DNA of 64,000 bases from an uncultured Bacillota bacterium (GTDB lineage: Bacteria; Bacillota; Clostridia; Christensenellales; UBA1242): contig CASDUK010000001.1 of NCBI GenBank assembly GCA_949283975.1, positions 218,764 to 282,763 of the forward strand, written 5' to 3'. Positions 1-58,970 of the stretch are shown in pieces (within the stretch, counting starts at the first letter, position 1; every line of letters starts with the position of its first letter). The position numbers were made by a program, and so were the translations under genes. Under the pieces are notes generated by a model. The model made no database searches. It saw nothing but the letters and a program-made list of their open reading frames with translations, and was not told the origin of the DNA.

Positions 1-886
1 CATAGTTTTTAACTATTTTAATTTTGTGAAGAAATTTTAAAATTCCAGAAACAAGTTTGTTTCCAATTGTTTTGTTAATTGAAACCAGTGCAACAACTAA
101 AATTAAAAATGAATTCAAAGCAAAGCCAACCCAGCTTGTTGCCGTTACAACTGTTCCACCAATTGTGTTAAGTTGAGAAAGAGAAATGCTTAAAATCATT
201 ATAATGAAAGTAAAAATAACATACGCCAGCTGTTGGGTAACATATTTTCCCATGCAAACGGAAAGCGCATTACGCCCAGAAAGCCCTCGTTTTGACATGT
301 AGTAAATTTGAAAGGGCTCGCCGCCAGCTGAAAGAGGAGTTAAAGAATCATAATATTTCCCAAGCGCAGCAACTTTATATGAAAGCGCAGGGCGATGGGT
401 TTTTGTTGTTGAGAAAATTAAGTTCCAAAATCTAAACGACTCTGAAAACATTAAAAGAGCATAGAGAACAATTAGCAAAAAGAAAATTCCCCAATTTATG
501 TTACAAAAAAGCGTTCCTATTGACGAGATGTCAACATCTTCACTTGAAAATTGATAGGCCAAAATTCCGGCAACAACGCCAATATTGATAAAAAGGAACA
601 AAATGTTAAGCCATTTTTTCTTTTTTGTTCCAAGCTTTTTAACTTTTTCTTCGGCTTCTTCAAGCTGTTCTTGTTCGTTTTGAGGGGAAAATTCTTCAAC
701 TTGTTCTTTTTGGGGAGGTTGTTGATTGGAAATTTCAAGCGGGGCGCTAGCGTCCTTTTCACTAATTTCTTCTGATTCAAGCGAAAGCTGCTCAAACTTT
801 TCGCTTTTATTAAACGAAAAATTTTCGGAACTTAATTGTTCCGGCGTTTTTTCAAAATCTCCACGCTTTTTTCGCCCTAACTTCAT
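1..886 (-). CDS. Membrane protein of the lysylphosphatidylglycerol-synthase-TM / UPF0104 (flippase-like) family. The 3' end runs off the window.
   Basis: This gene is absent from the ORF track because it has no stop codon inside the window. My own minus-strand translation from the ATG at 886-884 stays open to position 1: MKLGRKKRGDFEKTPEQLSSENF...EEAEEKVKKLGTKKKKWLNILFLFINIGVVAGILAYQF...GKYYDSLTPLSAGGEPFQIYYMSKRGLSGRNALSV... It has an acidic/Lys-rich N-terminus, several hydrophobic spans, and a GGEPFQ-type motif. The listed ORFs 517..795(-), 551..775(+) and 726..1049(+) are out-of-frame artefacts. Confidence 0.6.
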   Translation of the reverse strand, partial: MKLGRKKRGDFEKTPEQLSSENFSFNKSEKFEQLSLESEEISEKDASAPLEISNQQPPQKEQVEEFSPQNEQEQLEEAEEKVKKLGTKKKKWLNILFLFINIGVVAGILAYQFSSEDVDISSIGTLFCNINWGIFFLLIVLYALLMFSESFRFWNLIFSTTKTHRPALSYKVAALGKYYDSLTPLSAGGEPFQIYYMSKRGLSGRNALSVCMGKYVTQQLAYVIFTFIIMILSISLSQLNTIGGTVVTATSWVGFALNSFLILVVALVSINKTIGNKLVSGILKFLHKIKIVKNY

Positions 887-973
887 TTACATAATATTCT
901 ATCAAAAAAAAAGTTTTTGTCAAATATATATTTATTATTTTTATAATTTAGTATACATTGACCTTGTGTGCTT

Positions 974-2434
974 TTATTTTCTGAATTTTTTAAGAGAATA
1001 TGCAAGTTCGTTTATGTCGCCAGCGCCCAAAATTAAAACGCAACCATAATTTTTTGCCTCGTCCAAAATTTTCTCTCTTGCTTGATCAAAAGTTTCAAAA
1101 TATGAAATTTTTGTTAATTTTGAATTTAATATTTTATGTGCATTTTGACTAAATTTTAATTTATTAATATTTTGTTTAATATAACTATAATTTATATTTT
1201 TATAAATATGGTTATTTTTAACATAACTTTTATTTTCATTTTTAAAAATTAAAATTTTATTTTTAGACATAATTTTTTCAAACAAGTCGCTAGCCGTTGC
1301 ACCTTTAATTTCCTCTTCACGAGCAGGATATGTTTTTAGAAGAATAAGGTTGTTTGTTTGATTAAAACAAGTTGCAAACTGAGAAAACAGTTTTTTTGTT
1401 CTTGAAAATGTGTGAGGCTGAAAAACTGTTAAAATTTTGCCATATCTCTTTGCCTGCTCGATCACTTTTTCAATTTCTGTTGGGTGGTGGGCATAGTCGT
1501 GAATAACAACCGAGCCAGAGATTTTTGTTATTCTTTCAAAGCGGCGCTTAACGCCTTTAAAATTTTTAATTGCGCGCTTTATGGTTTGAATTCGAATTTT
1601 ATAAAAATTTGCAACAATTGCCGCAACTAGCGCATTTTTTGCGTTGTGTTCGCCTTGGAAATTGGTTTGAATTCTTCCAATTAGGTTTTCATTTTCGTAA
1701 AAATCAAAGAAAAATCCAAAATCATTTTTTTTAACATTTTTTGCATAATAATATTTTTGGAATTTTTGAGATTTTAAGCAATATTCAAATTCGTTTATTT
1801 TAAACAATTTTACTTTTGAATTTTCTAAAAATTTGTTGAAACTTTGCTTAATTTGCGAAAGATTTTTAAAAAAATCGAGGTGGTCTGGCTCAATGTTTAA
1901 AACAACGCCAAGCGAGGGTGAAAGTGTTAGAAAACTGTTTTTGTATTCGCAAGCTTCTGTTATAAAAAACTTTCTGTTTCCAATTAGAAAATTGCTGCAA
2001 CAACTTTTCAAAACGCCGCCAATGTGAACCGTTGGGTGTAAATTTGCTTCTCTCATTATCTCTGAGATTAAAGCCGTTGTTGTTGTTTTTCCGTGGGTTC
2101 CGCTAATTGCAACAACATTTTTAAAACCTTTGCATATATGTGCCAGCGCTTCTGCGCGAGAAATTAACTTTTTTTTCTTTTTAATTGCCCAGGCAAGTTC
2201 CGGGTTGTCTTTATTTATTGCTGAGTTGTAAACAACAAGATTTGGGTTAAATTCCTTTATGTTTTTTTCAAAGTGCCCAATGTTATATTTAATTCCAAAT
2301 TGGCAAAGAGAGTTGAGGTTTTCACAGGCCTGAATGTCGCTTCCCTCAACCAAATTTCCCTTAACGGCAAAAAAAACGGCAAGGCTGCTCATGCTAATTC
2401 CGCCAATTCCAATAAAATAAACTCGCTTAGACAT
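974..2434 (-). CDS. murC: UDP-N-acetylmuramate--L-alanine ligase
   Basis: The N-terminus FIGIGGISMSSLA and the P-loop GTHGKTTTT fit the Mur ligase family, as do DYAHHP and the C-terminal LGAGDI. An N/K/Y-rich insertion lies near the C-terminus. Confidence 0.9.
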   Translation of the reverse strand: MSKRVYFIGIGGISMSSLAVFFAVKGNLVEGSDIQACENLNSLCQFGIKYNIGHFEKNIKEFNPNLVVYNSAINKDNPELAWAIKKKKKLISRAEALAHICKGFKNVVAISGTHGKTTTTALISEIMREANLHPTVHIGGVLKSCCSNFLIGNRKFFITEACEYKNSFLTLSPSLGVVLNIEPDHLDFFKNLSQIKQSFNKFLENSKVKLFKINEFEYCLKSQKFQKYYYAKNVKKNDFGFFFDFYENENLIGRIQTNFQGEHNAKNALVAAIVANFYKIRIQTIKRAIKNFKGVKRRFERITKISGSVVIHDYAHHPTEIEKVIEQAKRYGKILTVFQPHTFSRTKKLFSQFATCFNQTNNLILLKTYPAREEEIKGATASDLFEKIMSKNKILIFKNENKSYVKNNHIYKNINYSYIKQNINKLKFSQNAHKILNSKLTKISYFETFDQAREKILDEAKNYGCVLILGAGDINELAYSLKKFRK

Positions 2435-8179: not shown

Positions 8180-8254
8180 TGGTGATCCCGACGGGATTCG
8201 AACCCATGATACCGCCGTGAAAGGGCGGTGTCTTAACCACTTGACCACGGGACC
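8180..8254 (-). tRNA. tRNA-Glu (anticodon UUC)
   Basis: The reverse complement GGTCCCGTGGTCAAGTGGTTAAGACACCGCCCTTTCACGGCGGTATCATGGGTTCGAATCCCGTCGGGATCACCA folds as a cloverleaf. The anticodon loop is CTTTCAC and the CCA end is encoded. Confidence 0.9.
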
Positions 8255-8258
8255 ATAT

Positions 8259-8335
8259 TGGTAGCGACGGAAAGATTTGAACCTTCGACCTTTCGGGTAT
8301 GAACCGAACGCTCTAGCCAACTGAGCTACGTCGCC
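8259..8335 (-). tRNA. tRNA-Met (anticodon CAU, elongator type). An Ile2/lysidine identity is not excluded.
   Basis: The reverse complement is GGCGACGTAGCTCAGTTGGCTAGAGCGTTCGGTTCATACCCGAAAGGTCGAAGGTTCAAATCTTTCCGTCGCTACCA. Confidence 0.85.
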
Positions 8336-8362
8336 AAACGGCTTTTCTTTTGCCTTTAAATT

Positions 8363-8439
<77 letters not shown>

Positions 8440-34002: not shown

Positions 34003-34090
34003 TGGCGGAGAGTTAGGGATTCGAACCCCAGGAAGCTTTCACTTCAACGGTTTTCAAGACCGCCGCTTTCGACCGCTCAGCCAACTCTCC
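34003..34090 (-). tRNA. tRNA-Ser (anticodon UGA)
   Basis: The reverse complement is GGAGAGTTGGCTGAGCGGTCGAAAGCGGCGGTCTTGAAAACCGTTGAAGTGAAAGCTTCCTGGGGTTCGAATCCCTAACTCTCCGCCA, with a long variable arm. Confidence 0.9.
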
Positions 34091-50400: not shown

Positions 50401-50489
50401 TGGCGGAAAGGGCGGGATTTGAACCCGCGGAGGCTTTTGACCTCACCGGTTTTCGAGACCAGCACATTCGACCACTCTGACACCTTTCC
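50401..50489 (-). tRNA. tRNA-Ser (anticodon CGA)
   Basis: The reverse complement is GGAAAGGTGTCAGAGTGGTCGAATGTGCTGGTCTCGAAAACCGGTGAGGTCAAAAGCCTCCGCGGGTTCAAATCCCGCCCTTTCCGCCA. Confidence 0.9.
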
Positions 50490-50587
50490 AAATCTGAAAG
50501 TTATTTTACATTAATTTGAAGATAAAATCAAGTAAAAACTTTGGTAAATTGATATTAAATTTTTAATATTTGTGTTATACTACTTTT

Positions 50588-51877
50588 ATGAAAAATCTGT
50601 TAAAACTTAATAAATCAATTTTAACCATACTTATCCTTTTGTTAATCTTGCTTTCTTGCTGTTTAATTTTCTCTGCATGTGGAGAGGAACCGGCGTCTCA
50701 GGATGAAAGAAAAGTTCTTTCATCTAACATGATTAAAGAAATTGAAGAGATGTTTTACAACGGAGAAAGCTTAGAGCCAGATGTTGTTTTAATGGACGGC
50801 GAAACCCTTTTAGTTGAGGGGGTTGACTATAAACTTACTTACGCAAATAACATAGAACCGGGAAGGGGAATTGTTTATATAACAGGAATTGGGAAATATC
50901 GCCAAACAGTTCAAGCATATTTTACAATTCTTGCTTCTTTTCAAGAAAAACTTAATTCCATGACTTCTGGGGAAACTTTTTCACTTGGGCAAAATTACAC
51001 GGGAAGTTTAACAATTCCAGAGGGAATAACTGTTAAAATTGAAAGTGGCTGTTTAATCTATTTGGAGGGGCAAACAACGCTTATGGAAGATGCCCAGCTA
51101 ATTAACGAAGGAACGGTTGTTCTAAGAAAAGATGCAACATTAAATTTGGGGCTTGGAACTTTAACAAACAACAATCAAATTACAATTGCGGGGGCTCTTT
51201 TAGAAGGAGAGGGAGGCGCGCTATATAATAACGGAACAATAATTTTAAACGGTGGAGAGATTGACATTTCAAATGCGCTTAAAAACCAAGGAACTTTTTC
51301 CTTAACATTTGGAAGCGTTTTTAATGTTGACAACCTTGAAATGCTTAATTTAGCCCAGCAAATAATTCAGTCCTCGGGTTCTCTATATGACAATACAATT
51401 CGTTTGAATAATAGTTTAGATTTGGATGGGGGAACTCTTTTAATTGGAAGGGCAACAACGCTTGATATGCAAAGCTTTTTGCTTTCTAATGGAACGGTTG
51501 AAAACAGGGGAACAATTTGTGTCCAGTCATATTCGGGCTTAATTAGCGCGCTTGGTTATTGCAAGGGCGAAGGAACGGTTAAACTTTCTGGGGTGTCTCA
51601 AATTTCACTAACAAACATATTAACTGTTCCAGCGGGCGTTACGCTATATTTTGATGAAAACATTTCAATTTCTTCAACAAACCCAGAGCTATATTACCTC
51701 GATGTTCAAGGGGAAATTGTTGGCAAAAATAATGTTCAAATAGAATTGCTTGGAGAAAAAATAATAGTTGGAGCGAAAAATATATTTTATGGTGATGTAA
51801 TGTTTGTTAATGTTCGCGAGGGAATTTATTATTGGAATCAAAGCGCAGAAAAATGGAACTATATTCCCCAGGTTTAA
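50588..51877 (+). CDS. Putative lipoprotein with a Gly/Asn/Thr-rich repetitive beta (beta-helix-like) region
   Basis: The signal peptide plus lipobox is MKNLLKLNKSILTILILLLILLSCCLIFSAC. Degenerate repeats of the type GT..L....L.N.G are present. The listed MCYTTF extension reads through the -10 box. Confidence 0.65.
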   Translation: MKNLLKLNKSILTILILLLILLSCCLIFSACGEEPASQDERKVLSSNMIKEIEEMFYNGESLEPDVVLMDGETLLVEGVDYKLTYANNIEPGRGIVYITGIGKYRQTVQAYFTILASFQEKLNSMTSGETFSLGQNYTGSLTIPEGITVKIESGCLIYLEGQTTLMEDAQLINEGTVVLRKDATLNLGLGTLTNNNQITIAGALLEGEGGALYNNGTIILNGGEIDISNALKNQGTFSLTFGSVFNVDNLEMLNLAQQIIQSSGSLYDNTIRLNNSLDLDGGTLLIGRATTLDMQSFLLSNGTVENRGTICVQSYSGLISALGYCKGEGTVKLSGVSQISLTNILTVPAGVTLYFDENISISSTNPELYYLDVQGEIVGKNNVQIELLGEKIIVGAKNIFYGDVMFVNVREGIYYWNQSAEKWNYIPQV

Positions 51878-52046: not shown

Positions 52047-52116
52047 AACATTTAAAAAAAGGGCTTTTAAAAAAGCTTTTTTTGTTATATAATATAGCGG
52101 AAAAGTGAGGAAGATT

Positions 52117-52545
52117 ATGAATACAAACAGACTTGGGGTTCTTTGTTGCGTAAAAGAAAAGGACGGAAGTTCAACATATGTTTTTAATGTTTATGAAAAG
52201 CTTGGAGAAAATGAGGAAGGGAAAGAAGTTTTAAAAGAGCTTGGCCAGAACGAAAATAAAAGTTTTGAAGAACTTTTTGGCTGTAATAGGGGAGAGCTTG
52301 ACCTTCTTAAAAAATATGTAACTTGCGGGCTAACAATGATAACTTATCATAACGGAGAAGAGGTTGTTTCAAGCCTTAGATATCTTGGGGCTAACCTTGG
52401 TTGTGGTTTTGGGAAAGATGTTGTTGAAAGCGCAAGAGACTTGGAAAGGTTTATTTCTTCAAACGAAGATGTTTTCGCAAAAAATGTTGGGAAAATTGAG
52501 GCGCTTGGCGCGCTTATTTCATCTTTTGATAATGGAATGGAATAG
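52117..52545 (+). CDS. Hypothetical protein
   Basis: A clean 142-aa ORF starting MNTNRLGVLCCVKEKDG..., with no recognised motif. Confidence 0.5.
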   Translation: MNTNRLGVLCCVKEKDGSSTYVFNVYEKLGENEEGKEVLKELGQNENKSFEELFGCNRGELDLLKKYVTCGLTMITYHNGEEVVSSLRYLGANLGCGFGKDVVESARDLERFISSNEDVFAKNVGKIEALGALISSFDNGME

Positions 52546-52583
52546 AACGATTTGCATTTTTTAATAAAATGTAGTATAATATA

Positions 52584-53185
52584 CTTGCGAAGGTGCAGTA
52601 TTCTAGTCGGGCGAATTTGCTTGGAAGGCGTTAAAAGCGCTAAATGGCACATCGATGAAGTTTCTGGTGTTGGCTTTGGTTGCCCAAACTGGGGCTTATG
52701 CTGGAAGTTAAGATTTTTGGGAGCGCTGTAATGGCATACAGAGGCAAACCCAATTATCGCGGAGACCCATACCGGTGGTTTCGTTAGAGATGGCACTGAT
52801 TGGGGATGAACCTGCATTGCGGTAAAAAAATTGCTGTGTGCAGCGTAGCCAGCCTTGAGTGGGACTGTTGGGATTAAGTTTATTTAAAATGGTTTTGGCC
52901 GAAACTGTTTTAAAGCAAAAAAGCAGACTTATGAAATTCACCCTGCAAAAAAGGATAAGAGCAAAATTCAATCGTTTGAGAAAATCTCTAGACTGTTCGT
53001 TTGCGATTCACTTTGGGGATTATAGTGTGGTCTTAGTGGCGATTCGGTGATGTCCTTCCCTTAAAAGGAAACTGCTTTTACGGCGACGGAAAGTGTGGAA
53101 GGCGGGAAATCCAACCGAACCTATGCTGCAAGGTTTACTTAAAGTGAAGCCTTTGCAAGAAGGTTAGTGATAACCTTCTTTTTTT
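52584..53185 (+). ncRNA. ole: Large structured noncoding RNA, most likely OLE (ornate, large, extremophilic) RNA
   Basis: This ~600-nt region has no credible ORF and is clearly richer in GC than its flanks. A TATAAT box lies at 52575-80. A terminal helix pairs CTTGCGAAGG (52584-93) with CCTTTGCAAG (53150-59), and an internal helix pairs CCTTCC (53053-58) with GGAAGG (53096-101). A terminator AGAAGGTTA-GTGA-TAACCTTCT plus T-run lies at 53158-85. An OapA-like gene and argR follow immediately. Confidence 0.65.
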
Positions 53186-53226
53186 ATGTTGTGATATATT
53201 AAAATTTGTGTTATTATAATATATGT

Positions 53227-53883
53227 ATGGAAGAAAATAACTCAGAAAAAGAAATTGAAATTGAAGCAGAACAGGAAGGTTCTAAGGATTCTAAAGTTAA
53301 AAAGTCAGATTTAAAATCTGCGGCAAGCAAGGCGGTTAAAAAGAAAGCGCAGCCATGGTGGGTTTGGCCAATTAAAATTTTGGTTATAACGCTTTTCCTT
53401 TCGCTTTCGTTTAGCGTTCTTAGCGAACTTTTGATGTCTAATGTTGGAATTGCTGTTTCATTAGTTGTAATTGTTTTCCTTCTTGCTTTGGGAATTGTTT
53501 CAGACATGATTGGAGTTGCAACAACAGCTTGCCAACTTGAGCCCTTTGCTGCAATGCGTTCAAGAAAGGTTAGAGGAGCAAAAGTTGCAATGACGCTTGT
53601 TAAACACGCAGAAAAAGTTTCAAGCATTTGCAACGATGTAATTGGAGATATTTGTGGAATTTTGTCTGGGGCTGCGGGCGCGGCAATAACTGCAAAATTT
53701 ATTGTTGACGGAATGGGTAATTCAATTCAAATTTTAATAGCTGGGGCGGTTAGTGCAACAATTGCTGGGCTAACAATTTTTGGAAAGGCAATTTTTAAAA
53801 AATATGCGCTAGACAACTGCACAAAAATTGTCCTTGGTTTTGGAAAGTGTTTAAGCATATTTTCAAGAAGAGAAAAGAAATAA
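53227..53883 (+). CDS. oapA: OapA-like (OLE-associated) four-TM membrane protein
   Basis: A hydrophilic N-terminus is followed by four TM spans. A basic loop (AAMRSRKVRGAKVAMTLVKHAEK) and the D-x-x-x-D motif (NDVIGDICG) are present. The ATG lies 6 nt after TATAAT with no Shine-Dalgarno sequence. Confidence 0.6.
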   Translation: MEENNSEKEIEIEAEQEGSKDSKVKKSDLKSAASKAVKKKAQPWWVWPIKILVITLFLSLSFSVLSELLMSNVGIAVSLVVIVFLLALGIVSDMIGVATTACQLEPFAAMRSRKVRGAKVAMTLVKHAEKVSSICNDVIGDICGILSGAAGAAITAKFIVDGMGNSIQILIAGAVSATIAGLTIFGKAIFKKYALDNCTKIVLGFGKCLSIFSRREKK

Positions 53884-54150: not shown

Positions 54151-54250
54151 AAATCGCTACAATGCCCTAAAATAGGCAGGTGTAGCGATTTGCCGGCCGA
54201 GCTAAAGGGGCTTTGCAAAATTGTTGCAAAAGGAGCAAGCGAAAGAAAAA

Positions 54251-54709
54251 ATGGCAAGATCGGTTAGACAATCTAAAATTTTAGAGTTAATCTCAACAAG
54301 AGAAATTGAAACTCAAGACGAACTTGTTGAGTGTTTGCGTGCAGCAAATTTTGATATAACCCAGGCAACAATTTCAAGAGATATTAAGGAGCTTGGCCTG
54401 ATAAAAATCTTAAGCGCAGAAACAGGAAAATATAAATATTCTCTTGTTGACTCTGGCGAGCAGGCTGTTTCGAATAAATACATATCAATTTTTAAAGAAG
54501 CTGTAATTTCAATTAAAACCGCCCAAAACCTTGTTGTTTTAAAAACTATTAGAGCCATGGCCAATTCAATTTGCGGGCTGATTGACAAACTTAATTTAGA
54601 TTCTGTTCTTGGCGCAGTTGCCGGAGATGACACCGTTATGGTAATTCTTCCAACAAACGAGCAAGCTCAAAAGGTTGCAACAACAATTGAGGCTTTAATC
54701 CATTTTTAA
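54251..54709 (+). CDS. argR: Arginine repressor
   Basis: RQSKILELISTREIETQDELVECLRAANFDITQATISRDIKELGLIK...GAVAGDDTVMVI matches ArgR. I moved the start to MARSV. Confidence 0.9.
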   Translation: MARSVRQSKILELISTREIETQDELVECLRAANFDITQATISRDIKELGLIKILSAETGKYKYSLVDSGEQAVSNKYISIFKEAVISIKTAQNLVVLKTIRAMANSICGLIDKLNLDSVLGAVAGDDTVMVILPTNEQAQKVATTIEALIHF

Positions 54710-54831: not shown

Positions 54832-55863
54832 TTATCTAAGTTTAACCTTTGTTGAGGCGTTTCGGCGAATGTCTTCGTCAATTGCAGCGTAGTGTTTCTT
54901 TGTTGTGTTAACATCTTTGTGGCCAAGAACATCGGCAACAATGTAAATATCTTGGGTTTCGCGGTAGAGGCTTGTTCCATAGGTGCTTCTAAGCTTGTGG
55001 GGTGAAATTTTTTTAAGCGGCGTAACAGCTTGGCTATATTTCTTAACCAAATTTTCAACTGCGCGCGGGGTAATTCTTTTTCTTTGAAGGGACAAAAAGA
55101 GCGCGGGCTCGTCCTTATCCAAAGTTTCAATTTTCTCTCTAACATTTAGCCACTGAATTAGCGCTTCTTTAACTTCATTTGAGAAATATAAAACAACCTC
55201 ATTGCCGCCCTTTCGCGTTATTTTAAAGCTGTTATCTGCTAGATTTAGGTCTGAAACATTTAGGCCAACACATTCGCTAATTCGAATTCCTGTTCCCAAA
55301 AACAGGGTTAACATTGCAACATCTCTTTCCTTTGTTCTTCTGTTGTATGTAATTTCTCTTCTTGTTAGGTTTTCGGGGGCTTCAGCCTCGTCTAAAAGCC
55401 TTGCAACCTCGTCCGGCTCAAGCCTAATAATTTCCTTTTCATGAATTTTTGGCGTTGTAATCTTGGAAACAACATTTGAACTAATCAAATCACTTTTAAA
55501 TAAAAATTTAAACAGGCTTCTAATTGCAGAAAGCTTTCTTGCTTTGCCTTTTTCCTTGTTTATATGAACCTTTCCGTCCCTTTCAAAATATGAAACATAG
55601 CTTAAAAAGCGCTCTATATCCCTTGATTTTATTAAGTCCAAATCTGAAAGGGTGATTTCCTTTGGAGGTTTTGAAAGATTGTTCGCAAGATATGTAAAGA
55701 AAAGCTTCAAATCTGCAAGATAATTAACCCTAGTAAGCGAAGAGGTGTTGTTTTCAATTGAGATTATAAAATCTTGAACATATCCAGGGAAAAAGGAAAG
55801 TTCTTGCATGATTTTTTTCTGATTTTTTAAATCCATTTCTGTGTGATAATTGACTTTGGCCAT
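54832..55863 (-). CDS. Tyrosine site-specific recombinase (XerC/XerD family)
   Basis: A SAM-like N-domain is followed by the catalytic residues in GIRISEC, HKLRSTYGT, and LGHKDVNTTKKHY. Confidence 0.8.
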   Translation of the reverse strand: MAKVNYHTEMDLKNQKKIMQELSFFPGYVQDFIISIENNTSSLTRVNYLADLKLFFTYLANNLSKPPKEITLSDLDLIKSRDIERFLSYVSYFERDGKVHINKEKGKARKLSAIRSLFKFLFKSDLISSNVVSKITTPKIHEKEIIRLEPDEVARLLDEAEAPENLTRREITYNRRTKERDVAMLTLFLGTGIRISECVGLNVSDLNLADNSFKITRKGGNEVVLYFSNEVKEALIQWLNVREKIETLDKDEPALFLSLQRKRITPRAVENLVKKYSQAVTPLKKISPHKLRSTYGTSLYRETQDIYIVADVLGHKDVNTTKKHYAAIDEDIRRNASTKVKLR

Positions 55864-56070: not shown

Positions 56071-57354
56071 ATGATCTCAATAGAAATGATTAAAAACGAC
56101 CAAGAAAAAGTCGAGCGCGCAATTGAAAAGCGCGGAATGAAAATAGATTTTAAACCTTTGTTTGAGTTGGATTCAAAACGAAGAGAACTTTTAAACAAGG
56201 TTGATGTTTTAAAATCTAAAAGGAATCAGGAAAGCGCAAAAGTTCCAGCTCTAAAAAAAGAGGGGAAAGATTGCAGCGAAATATTTAAAGAAATGAAAAA
56301 ACTTGGAGAGGAAATTTCTTCCTTAGACGAAAAGGTTTCAAAAGTTGAAGAAGAAATTTTTAACTTCCTTGCGCCAATTCCAAATTTGGTTGATGAAGAC
56401 GTTGTTCCAGGAGGAAAGGAGGCAAATGAGGAAGTTAGAAGCTTTGGTGAAAAGCCAACTTTTCCTTTCCAGCCGCTTTCTCATATTGATCTTTGCAAAA
56501 TTAATGGGTTCATTGATTATCAAGCCGGCGCAAAGCTTTCTGGAAATGGCCACTGGATTTACACAGGCGAAGGCGCAGAACTTGAATGGGCGCTTATAAA
56601 CTATTTTATCAACCAACATCTTGAGGACGGATATAAGTTTATTTTGCCGCCACATATGCTTGGATATAAATGTGGGTTTATTGCCGGCCAGTTTCCAAAA
56701 TTTGACGATGAAGTTTATTGGCTAGACGAAAAATCTAAAACGGGGAAATTTTTGCTTCCAACTGCCGAAACGCCTCTTGCAAGTATGTATCAAGACTCAA
56801 TTATTCCAGAGCAAGAACTTCCAATTAAAATGTTTGCCTACACGCCTTGCTATCGCCGCGAAGCTGGAAGCTATCGAACGGAAGAGCGCGGAATGATTAG
56901 AGGCCACCAATTTAACAAAGTTGAAATGTTCCAAATAACAACGCCAGAAGGGTCTGACGCCGCTTTTGATGAACTTGTTTCTAAGGCCGAAAAATTGGTT
57001 TTGGGGCTTGGCCTTCATTTTAGAACAACAAAACTTGCAGCAGAAGATGTTAGTGCAACAATGGCAAGGACATATGACATTGAAATTTGGATTCCAAGCA
57101 TGGGAATTTATAAGGAAGTTAGTTCAGCTTCTAACGCAAGGGATTATCAAGCAAGGCGCGGGAACATAAAATTTAGGGATTCCAAAACTCAAAAAACGCT
57201 TTTTGTTAATACTTTAAATGCAAGCGGGCTTGCAACAAGCCGCCTGTTTCCAGCGCTTTTAGAGCAATATCAAAATGAAGATGGAACAATTCGTGTTCCA
57301 AAGGTTTTACAACCGTTTATGAGGGGAAAAACTGTTATAGGAAAGGGAAAATAA
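56071..57354 (+). CDS. serS: Serine--tRNA ligase
   Basis: An N-terminal coiled coil, PTAETPL, YTPCYRREAGS, and GLATSR fit SerS. Confidence 0.95.
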   Translation: MISIEMIKNDQEKVERAIEKRGMKIDFKPLFELDSKRRELLNKVDVLKSKRNQESAKVPALKKEGKDCSEIFKEMKKLGEEISSLDEKVSKVEEEIFNFLAPIPNLVDEDVVPGGKEANEEVRSFGEKPTFPFQPLSHIDLCKINGFIDYQAGAKLSGNGHWIYTGEGAELEWALINYFINQHLEDGYKFILPPHMLGYKCGFIAGQFPKFDDEVYWLDEKSKTGKFLLPTAETPLASMYQDSIIPEQELPIKMFAYTPCYRREAGSYRTEERGMIRGHQFNKVEMFQITTPEGSDAAFDELVSKAEKLVLGLGLHFRTTKLAAEDVSATMARTYDIEIWIPSMGIYKEVSSASNARDYQARRGNIKFRDSKTQKTLFVNTLNASGLATSRLFPALLEQYQNEDGTIRVPKVLQPFMRGKTVIGKGK

Positions 57355-58847: not shown

Positions 58848-58884
58848 TAAAAAAAGAATAACCCAAAGGATTATTCTTTTTTTT
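58848..58884. terminator. Bidirectional intrinsic terminator
   Basis: AAGAATAA-CCCAAAGGA-TTATTCTT is flanked by A- and T-runs. Confidence 0.7.
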
Positions 58885-58970
58885 GGTGCGGAAAACAGGA
58901 TTTGAACCTGCAAGGAATTTCTTCCACTAGAATCTGAATCTAGCGCGTCTACCAATTTCGCCATTTCCGC
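58884..58970 (-). tRNA. tRNA-Leu (anticodon CAG)
   Basis: The reverse complement is GCGGAAATGGCGAAATTGGTAGACGCGCTAGATTCAGATTCTAGTGGAAGAAATTCCTTGCAGGTTCAAATCCTGTTTTCCGCACCA. Confidence 0.9.

Follow-up and report, generated by a model that had tools for sequence, protein, structure and literature searches.

The ole locus and its gene neighbourhood

The OLE (ornate, large, extremophilic) RNA family, known since 2006, is represented in Rfam. The window analysed here, a stretch of 64,000 nt, carries an OLE RNA gene (ole), followed on the same strand by oapA and argR (Table 1). Our computations show OLE identity, an OLE fold and a partnership with OapA at this locus, and the best explanation, of which we are nearly certain, is that it is the OLE RNA gene of an uncultured, probably anaerobic gut bacterium of the Clostridia close to Christensenellales. 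The locus is an already known kind of feature, one that a standard annotation pipeline would label and that goes no step beyond the known OLE family; its RNA is a reduced form without the P13 hairpin, not the full-length consensus.

Table 1. Features of the ole-oapA-argR region, with positions in the window
Feature	Position	Strand	Detail
-35 element of ole promoter, TTTGCA	52551-52556	+	T 52/66, T 59/66, G 54/66 across loci
Extended -10 (TGTAG + TATAAT)	52570-52580	+	T 63/66, A 66/66, final T 62/66
OLE RNA	52574-53169	+	Rfam RF01071 match, 596 nt, covariation in 66 loci
P1 5' strand	52584-52594	+	Core 52589-52594; 52584-52588 lineage-specific extension
k-turn 5' half (OapC / bS21 site)	52651-52660	+	C-helix C52653, bulge 52654-56, G52657, A52658
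k-turn 3' half, UUAAGA	52708-52713	+	A52710, A52711, G52712; invariant columns T160, A161, A162, G163
Missing P13 hairpin site	53050-53052	+	AUG (3 nt) replaces 21 model positions (RF01071 alignment)
P14/P14.1 arm	53053-53103	+	GCGA tetraloop 53083-86; consensus helices
P1 3' strand	53149-53159	+	Core 53149-53154; 53157-59 common to terminator stem
Intrinsic terminator	53157-53185	+	10-bp stem 53157-53180, GUGA loop, T-run to 53185
Promoter-like element for oapA, TGTTATTATAAT	53209-53220	+	6 nt before ATG; putative
oapA	53227-53883	+	218 aa; 40 nt downstream of OLE
argR	54221-54709	+	Arg_repressor domains; TIGR01529 133 bits

With the protein encoded downstream of the RNA as query and one genome taken per species, 80 related loci (numbered with the prefix L) were gathered, the best of them 94% identical and nearly all from gut metagenome-assembled genomes (MAGs) labelled Clostridia, Christensenella, Christensenellales, Oscillospiraceae or Faecousia. 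The host was placed indirectly, via the labels of its relatives: the closest loci come from gut MAGs titled Clostridia, Christensenella, Christensenellales or Oscillospiraceae, and Candidatus Onthoplasma is placed in Christensenellales. A search with nhmmer located OLE directly upstream of the query gene and on the same strand in 75 of the 80 loci, while three had no upstream DNA. All 77 loci with enough DNA proved to have OLE next to an OapA homolog, 76 of them upstream on the same strand and one inverted. The inverted case, L005, lies on a contig of a Lachnospiraceae-labelled MAG, where OLE (816-1418, minus strand, 380 bits) and oapA (83-739, plus strand) are convergent; it could be a true inversion or, so close to the end of a contig, an assembly error.

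The preliminary description had named the downstream gene oapA, and besides this constant adjacency the protein itself bears the name out. Hydropathy places four hydrophobic segments at residues ~44-66, 74-100, 138-160 and 166-190, a DxxxD motif is present as DVIGD at residues 137-141 (each motif residue being found in at least 90% of aligned homologs), and the CNNM family PF01595 gives a weak match (19.7 bits and E 7e-4, under the cut-off of 28.4). These agree with the published description of OapA, a protein of four helices with a characteristic DxxxD motif and a remote relatedness to the MpfA CNNM domain (PMC11332333). The protein resembles the CNNM-domain Mg2+ transporters MpfA and CorB through this sub-threshold match, of a kind reported in the literature for OapA, and in being a small multi-pass membrane protein; it differs from them in having four membrane segments instead of three and in carrying the OapA-specific DxxxD, and the CBS and CorC domains found in MpfA are missing from it. 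A sequence search of the PDB with OapA returned only a spurious match at E=1, so that no solved relative is detectable by sequence.

Downstream of oapA, argR is present in 67 of the 80 loci, in the order ole-oapA-argR. ArgR has been named as a candidate OLE partner in the OLE literature, and its conservation here fits that role. Beyond argR lie a XerS-like tyrosine recombinase gene (54832-55863, minus strand; NF003462, 207 bits, below the cut-off) and the seryl-tRNA synthetase gene (56071-57354, plus strand), an order after argR that is kept in L001-L004. On the other side of ole are two plus-strand open reading frames (ORFs), one of 435 aa with an N-terminal hydrophobic segment (50570-51877) and one of 146 aa (52105-52545). 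Neither has a Pfam or NCBIfam match, only L001, the closest relative, has them among the 80 loci and, judged by this distribution, they lie outside any conserved OLE neighbourhood. The window also contains six tRNA genes, all on the minus strand: a Glu-Met-Met cluster at 8180-8439, Ser(tga) at 34003-34090, Ser(cga) at 50401-50489 and Leu(cag) at 58884-58970. The tRNA-Ser(cga) gene precedes ole by ~2 kb, and a tRNA gene occupies the equivalent position in L001.

The region matches OLE and no other RNA family

That the region encodes OLE RNA had been proposed from its letters, and the call was right: the Rfam model RF01071 matches the plus strand over its full length (model positions 1-616 of 616, untruncated) with 374.9 bits and an E value of 1.4e-106, the gathering threshold of the family being 50 bits. 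The size of about 600 nt given earlier agrees with both the length of this match and the ~600 nt between the predicted transcription start and the terminator, and the region is indeed richer in GC than its flanks (0.41-0.44 inside, 0.32-0.38 in the flanks).

RNase P, tmRNA, ROOL, GOLLD and raiA had been listed as alternatives, and the locus might on that account hold a different large structured RNA. None of them obtained a match in a permissive Rfam scan of positions 52400-53300 (E<=10) and ARAGORN finds no tmRNA in the region. Because that scan returned, apart from OLE, just a spurious 15-bit match to a eukaryotic lncRNA, these families are excluded, and we assign a different RNA a negligible probability.

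We consider it equally far-fetched that the interval codes for small proteins. It does hold three overlapping ORFs of 63-156 aa that are open in the window (52347-52817 and 52708-52971 on the minus strand, 52859-53050 on the plus strand). The same frames, however, carry one to five stop codons in homologous loci, the length differences between loci are not multiples of three, and the substitutions preserve base pairs, not codons. The coding alternative fails because of these stops and frameshifts, and the view that no credible ORF exists here, voiced from the single sequence, is upheld: none of the three is conserved in homologous loci.

The OLE fold is conserved, including a helix that joins the ends

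We aligned the window RNA with 65 full-length OLE relatives (66 sequences in all) and counted pairs over the Rfam consensus structure together with the helix joining the two ends of the RNA, using as controls the same pairs with their 3' partners slid by 1-3 columns. With the structure transferred from RF01071, 130 of the 145 consensus pairs are standard pairs in the window RNA. Across the alignment, 87.0% of the pair cells are paired, compared to 41-45% in the slid controls; double-sided changes occur in 120 of 156 pairs, and the covariation score is 0.503 against 0.11-0.13 in the controls. The nucleotides that are invariant in the family are kept in the window OLE. Model fit and covariation show that the RNA adopts the conserved OLE fold, with a P1 helix joining both ends. 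The minimum free energy of the single sequence is only modestly low (z-score of -2.5 over 20 shuffles); both the end-joining helix and the terminator are present in the predicted fold.

The end-joining helix had been drawn as a 10-bp pairing of CTTGCGAAGG (52584-93) with CCTTTGCAAG (53150-59) containing one G-U pair, and it gains one more pair, U52594-G53149. On the single sequence this helix is unremarkable and not above chance, as helices of at least 10 bp form between shuffled end segments in 20% of shuffles and helices of at least 11 bp in 8%. Comparison upholds its inner part: at each of the six pairs between 52589-94 and 53149-54, at least 64 of the 66 sequences are paired, and the six covary strongly, one column pair being CG in 26 sequences, AU in 21, UA in 15 and GC in 2. 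The outer part is lineage-specific, its four to five pairs being formed in about half of the relatives, and in the window the three outermost pairs use 3 nt that also belong to the terminator stem. Given that the -10 element of the promoter ends at 52580, transcription is expected to start near 52587; the outer P1 pairs probably lie upstream of that start, and P1 in the RNA is probably a helix of 8 bp (52587-94 with 53149-56). In the Rfam OLE model both ends are unpaired and P1 is not included.

A separate arrangement was seen at the 3' strand of P1 in five P13-less relatives (L009, L010, L012, L015 and L017), in which a run of 7-8 T (CCTTCATTTTTTTT; columns 768-790 of alignment A1) directly follows this strand with no separate hairpin. 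In these loci the long-range P1 helix itself might act as the terminator stem.

A predicted promoter and terminator of its own

A consensus scan confirmed the TATAAT box remarked on earlier (52575-52580) and paired it with TTTGCA across an 18-nt spacer. The claim that ole has its own promoter gains its force from the related loci, in which the columns are conserved across genera in the Gram-positive sigma-A pattern: the consensus of the 66 loci reads TTG, 17 alignment columns, TRTGnTAWWAT, and the extended -10 of the window deviates from it by an A where 54 of the 66 loci have G. Single-sequence scans are not above chance, for promoters (10 found, 6.5 expected) or for terminators (3 found, 2.4 expected), and it is the comparison with related loci, not these scans, that supports both elements.

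The terminator claimed for the RNA is upheld within narrower bounds. A hairpin followed by a U-run is present in the window and in L001-L005 and L020, with differing stems, and this arrangement is conserved only in the closest clade. A scan for perfect stems found it only in the window, L001 and L020; RNAfold added imperfect hairpins with U-runs in L002-L005. In most other lineages oapA starts at most ~35 nt from P1, with a Shine-Dalgarno sequence before the start, which leaves no room for a terminator.

Downstream of the hairpin, the window clade has TGnTATTATAAT placed 5-6 nt ahead of the oapA ATG, an arrangement kept in L001, L002 and L004 and varied in L003 (TATAAA-N6-ATG), and oapA in this clade (the window and L001-L004) has no Shine-Dalgarno sequence. 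In Faecousia-type loci, a Shine-Dalgarno sequence and a GTG start come right after OLE. Taken together, the TGnTATTATAAT element, the absent Shine-Dalgarno sequence and the hairpin with its U-run lead us to infer two transcription units in the window clade, one for ole and one for an oapA that is probably leaderless. Transcription of ole would start near 52587 from a promoter of sigma-A type (-35 at 52551-56, -10 at 52575-80) and stop at the hairpin at 53157-85, yielding a product of ~600 nt separate from the downstream oapA. Promoter, terminator and conservation thus point to an independent transcript of ~600 nt running from ~52587 to ~53185, and the arrangement further downstream suggests a leaderless oapA mRNA made from a promoter of its own beyond the OLE terminator.

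Alternatively, ole and oapA could be transcribed together, OLE being chiefly a long structured 5' portion of their shared RNA and the hairpin at 53157-85 working only as a leaky or regulated attenuator. There is precedent in H. halodurans, where ole sits in a polycistronic transcript, and co-transcription is the common arrangement among most related loci, given that oapA lies at most ~35 nt from P1 with no terminator between. In the window clade, however, a strong hairpin is followed by a U-run, and TGnTATTATAAT-N5/6-ATG without a Shine-Dalgarno sequence resembles a separate oapA promoter downstream of that hairpin. We regard a co-transcript as unlikely, though deserving more weight than the other alternatives weighed here; it touches only the architecture of the transcripts, and the identity of the RNA as OLE is undisputed under it. 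Two separate units, ole and oapA, remain the preferred reading for this clade.

P13 is lost and the k-turn is retained

The 21 model positions absent from the window RNA fall between P12.2 and P14, and correspond to the P13 hairpin. Of the 66 aligned RNAs, 24 lack this hairpin, and with the Rfam model these P13-less copies score 343-387 bits, compared to 447-470 bits for P13-containing relatives. P13 belongs to full-length OLE and is not found throughout the family; as OLE variants without it are on record in the literature, its loss is compatible with family membership. In the crystal structure of OapB with OLE, the GNRA loop and a bulged nucleotide of P13 form the primary OapB-binding site, and the GCGA loop of P14.1 is a weak secondary site (PMC7936274). 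The latter loop is retained in the window. The pairing of CCTTCC with GGAAGG noticed earlier in this arm is a genuine helix of the Rfam consensus; its strands lie at 53054-59 and 53097-102, each shifted right by one base from the coordinates first given. With P13 absent, the window OLE probably works without its main OapB contact, and we infer from the missing hairpin that the OLE particle here probably does not use this contact.

One could also read the loss of P13, and a score of 375 bits against 447-470 in P13-containing relatives, as signs of a decaying, non-functional remnant, and rare defective ole genes have been reported in the literature from organisms without OapA. Yet the model match is full-length with 130 of 145 pairs intact, the invariant nucleotides of the family are retained, the promoter is conserved, and an intact oapA with its motif adjoins. 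Moreover, 24 relatives at the species level have maintained an OLE without P13 while acquiring compensatory changes. A remnant is therefore very improbable, and we treat the RNA as an intact OLE of reduced form.

The k-turn, whose nucleotides flank P5 and form the site for OapC or bS21 (PMC9723947), is preserved. We mapped its register ourselves from the text of PMC9723947 onto the Rfam model numbering, which gives the pairs C85-G144, G89-A143 and A90-A142, corresponding in the window to 52653/52712, 52657/52711 and 52658/52710. Naming of OLE helices varies from paper to paper, and the published names transferred to the Rfam helices are those whose positions the texts fix, P12.2-P15 and the P5/P6 k-turn. 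Window and consensus do not differ anywhere in model positions 83-92 and 140-144; C85, G89, A90, A142, A143 and G144 are invariant in the 66 loci, as are the nucleotides A, C, U, G, A, A and G of the 5' half. This invariance suggests that the k-turn partners OapC and bS21 may still be in use where P13 has been lost.

Comparison with known OLE systems and interpretation

The biology of the family was drawn from PMC12265935, PMC11332333, PMC7936274 and PMC9723947. The full-length OLE RNAs of Halalkalibacterium halodurans and Clostridium acetobutylicum and the window OLE are alike in their length of ~600 nt, their helices and their invariant nucleotides, and they have in common the k-turn core and the P12.2/P14/P14.1/P15 region. 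In both cases oapA is immediately downstream and argR is nearby; the host of the window OLE, like theirs, is probably one of the anaerobic Bacillota. They differ in that full-length OLE has P13, with its GNRA loop and single-nucleotide bulge, whereas the window OLE does not, and in that ole of H. halodurans is polycistronic, whereas the window ole has its own conserved promoter, a clade-level terminator and no long operon. The usual neighbours of full-length ole (isoprenoid, DNA-repair and other genes) were not seen upstream of the window ole.

Membrane localisation, RNA dimerisation and stress tolerance are known only for the RNAs of H. halodurans and C. acetobutylicum. By homology with H. 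halodurans, the window OLE would dimerise and bind the membrane protein OapA, and OLE and OapA would form a membrane-anchored ribonucleoprotein that aids tolerance of alcohols, cold, excess Mg2+ and poor carbon sources, a function extrapolated from one distant model organism.

Tentatively, and with slightly more doubt than belief, we propose that the OLE of this clade has been rewired into a minimal, modular form, in which an autonomous ole unit with its own promoter and terminator stands beside a separate, probably leaderless oapA, and in which the loss of P13 and its OapB site, combined with retention of the k-turn, would leave a core of OLE and OapA that works independently of OapB and may include OapC or bS21. 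If true, this core would lend itself naturally, as a minimal construct, to work on the structure and function of the unresolved OLE domain 2. What the locus adds, namely a conserved promoter, a terminator confined to its clade, an oapA that is likely leaderless and a k-turn that persists where P13 is lost, amounts to refinements within the OLE family.

Natural reduced OLEs reveal which part is dispensable (P13) and which parts persist in every case (the k-turn core, P1, P12.2/P14 and the segments containing CUAG). The point about dispensable and retained parts was made in 2024 for reduced-genome gut lineages, and the window locus is one more example of a reduced OLE that opens no new question. 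Its practical value lies in correct annotation: it accounts for 600 geneless nucleotides in a gut MAG and gives a name to the small membrane protein encoded downstream of them.

A survey with one genome per species lists 2,822 OLE examples in Bacillota, reduced forms in gut MAGs included. Among these forms, 'variant 1' (Fernando and Breaker 2024, PMC11332333), with 310-390 bits under its own model, is commonest in TANB77, a group of uncultured gut Clostridia; it has shorter P7, P8 and P9 and often lacks the OapB site on P13 (PMC11332333), and it occurs in uncultured lineages of the gut from which OapB and OapC are missing as well. Judging from its sequence, the window OLE resembles this reduced variant. 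Both lack the OapB-binding end of P13 and both have an uncultured gut host. The 374.9 bits of the window OLE, an intermediate score like those of variant 1, fall numerically within 310-390, these being scores under the Rfam model and the authors' model, respectively, and not directly comparable; the nearest relatives carry NCBI names that indicate Christensenellales. Two variable hairpins at alignment columns 238-308 and 317-384 are shorter in the window, at 39 and 32 nt, than in Faecousia-type loci (~60-66 and 37 nt), and may correspond to P7 and P8.

A still shorter OLE was seen in L077, from a MAG titled 'uncultured Bacilli'. This locus had been a candidate for an OapA without OLE when nhmmer with the window OLE as query missed the RNA, and was discarded as such once cmscan with Rfam recovered an OLE of 503 nt (1087-1589, plus strand, 237.9 bits) directly upstream of the OapA homolog; this short OLE resembles the published 'variant 2'.
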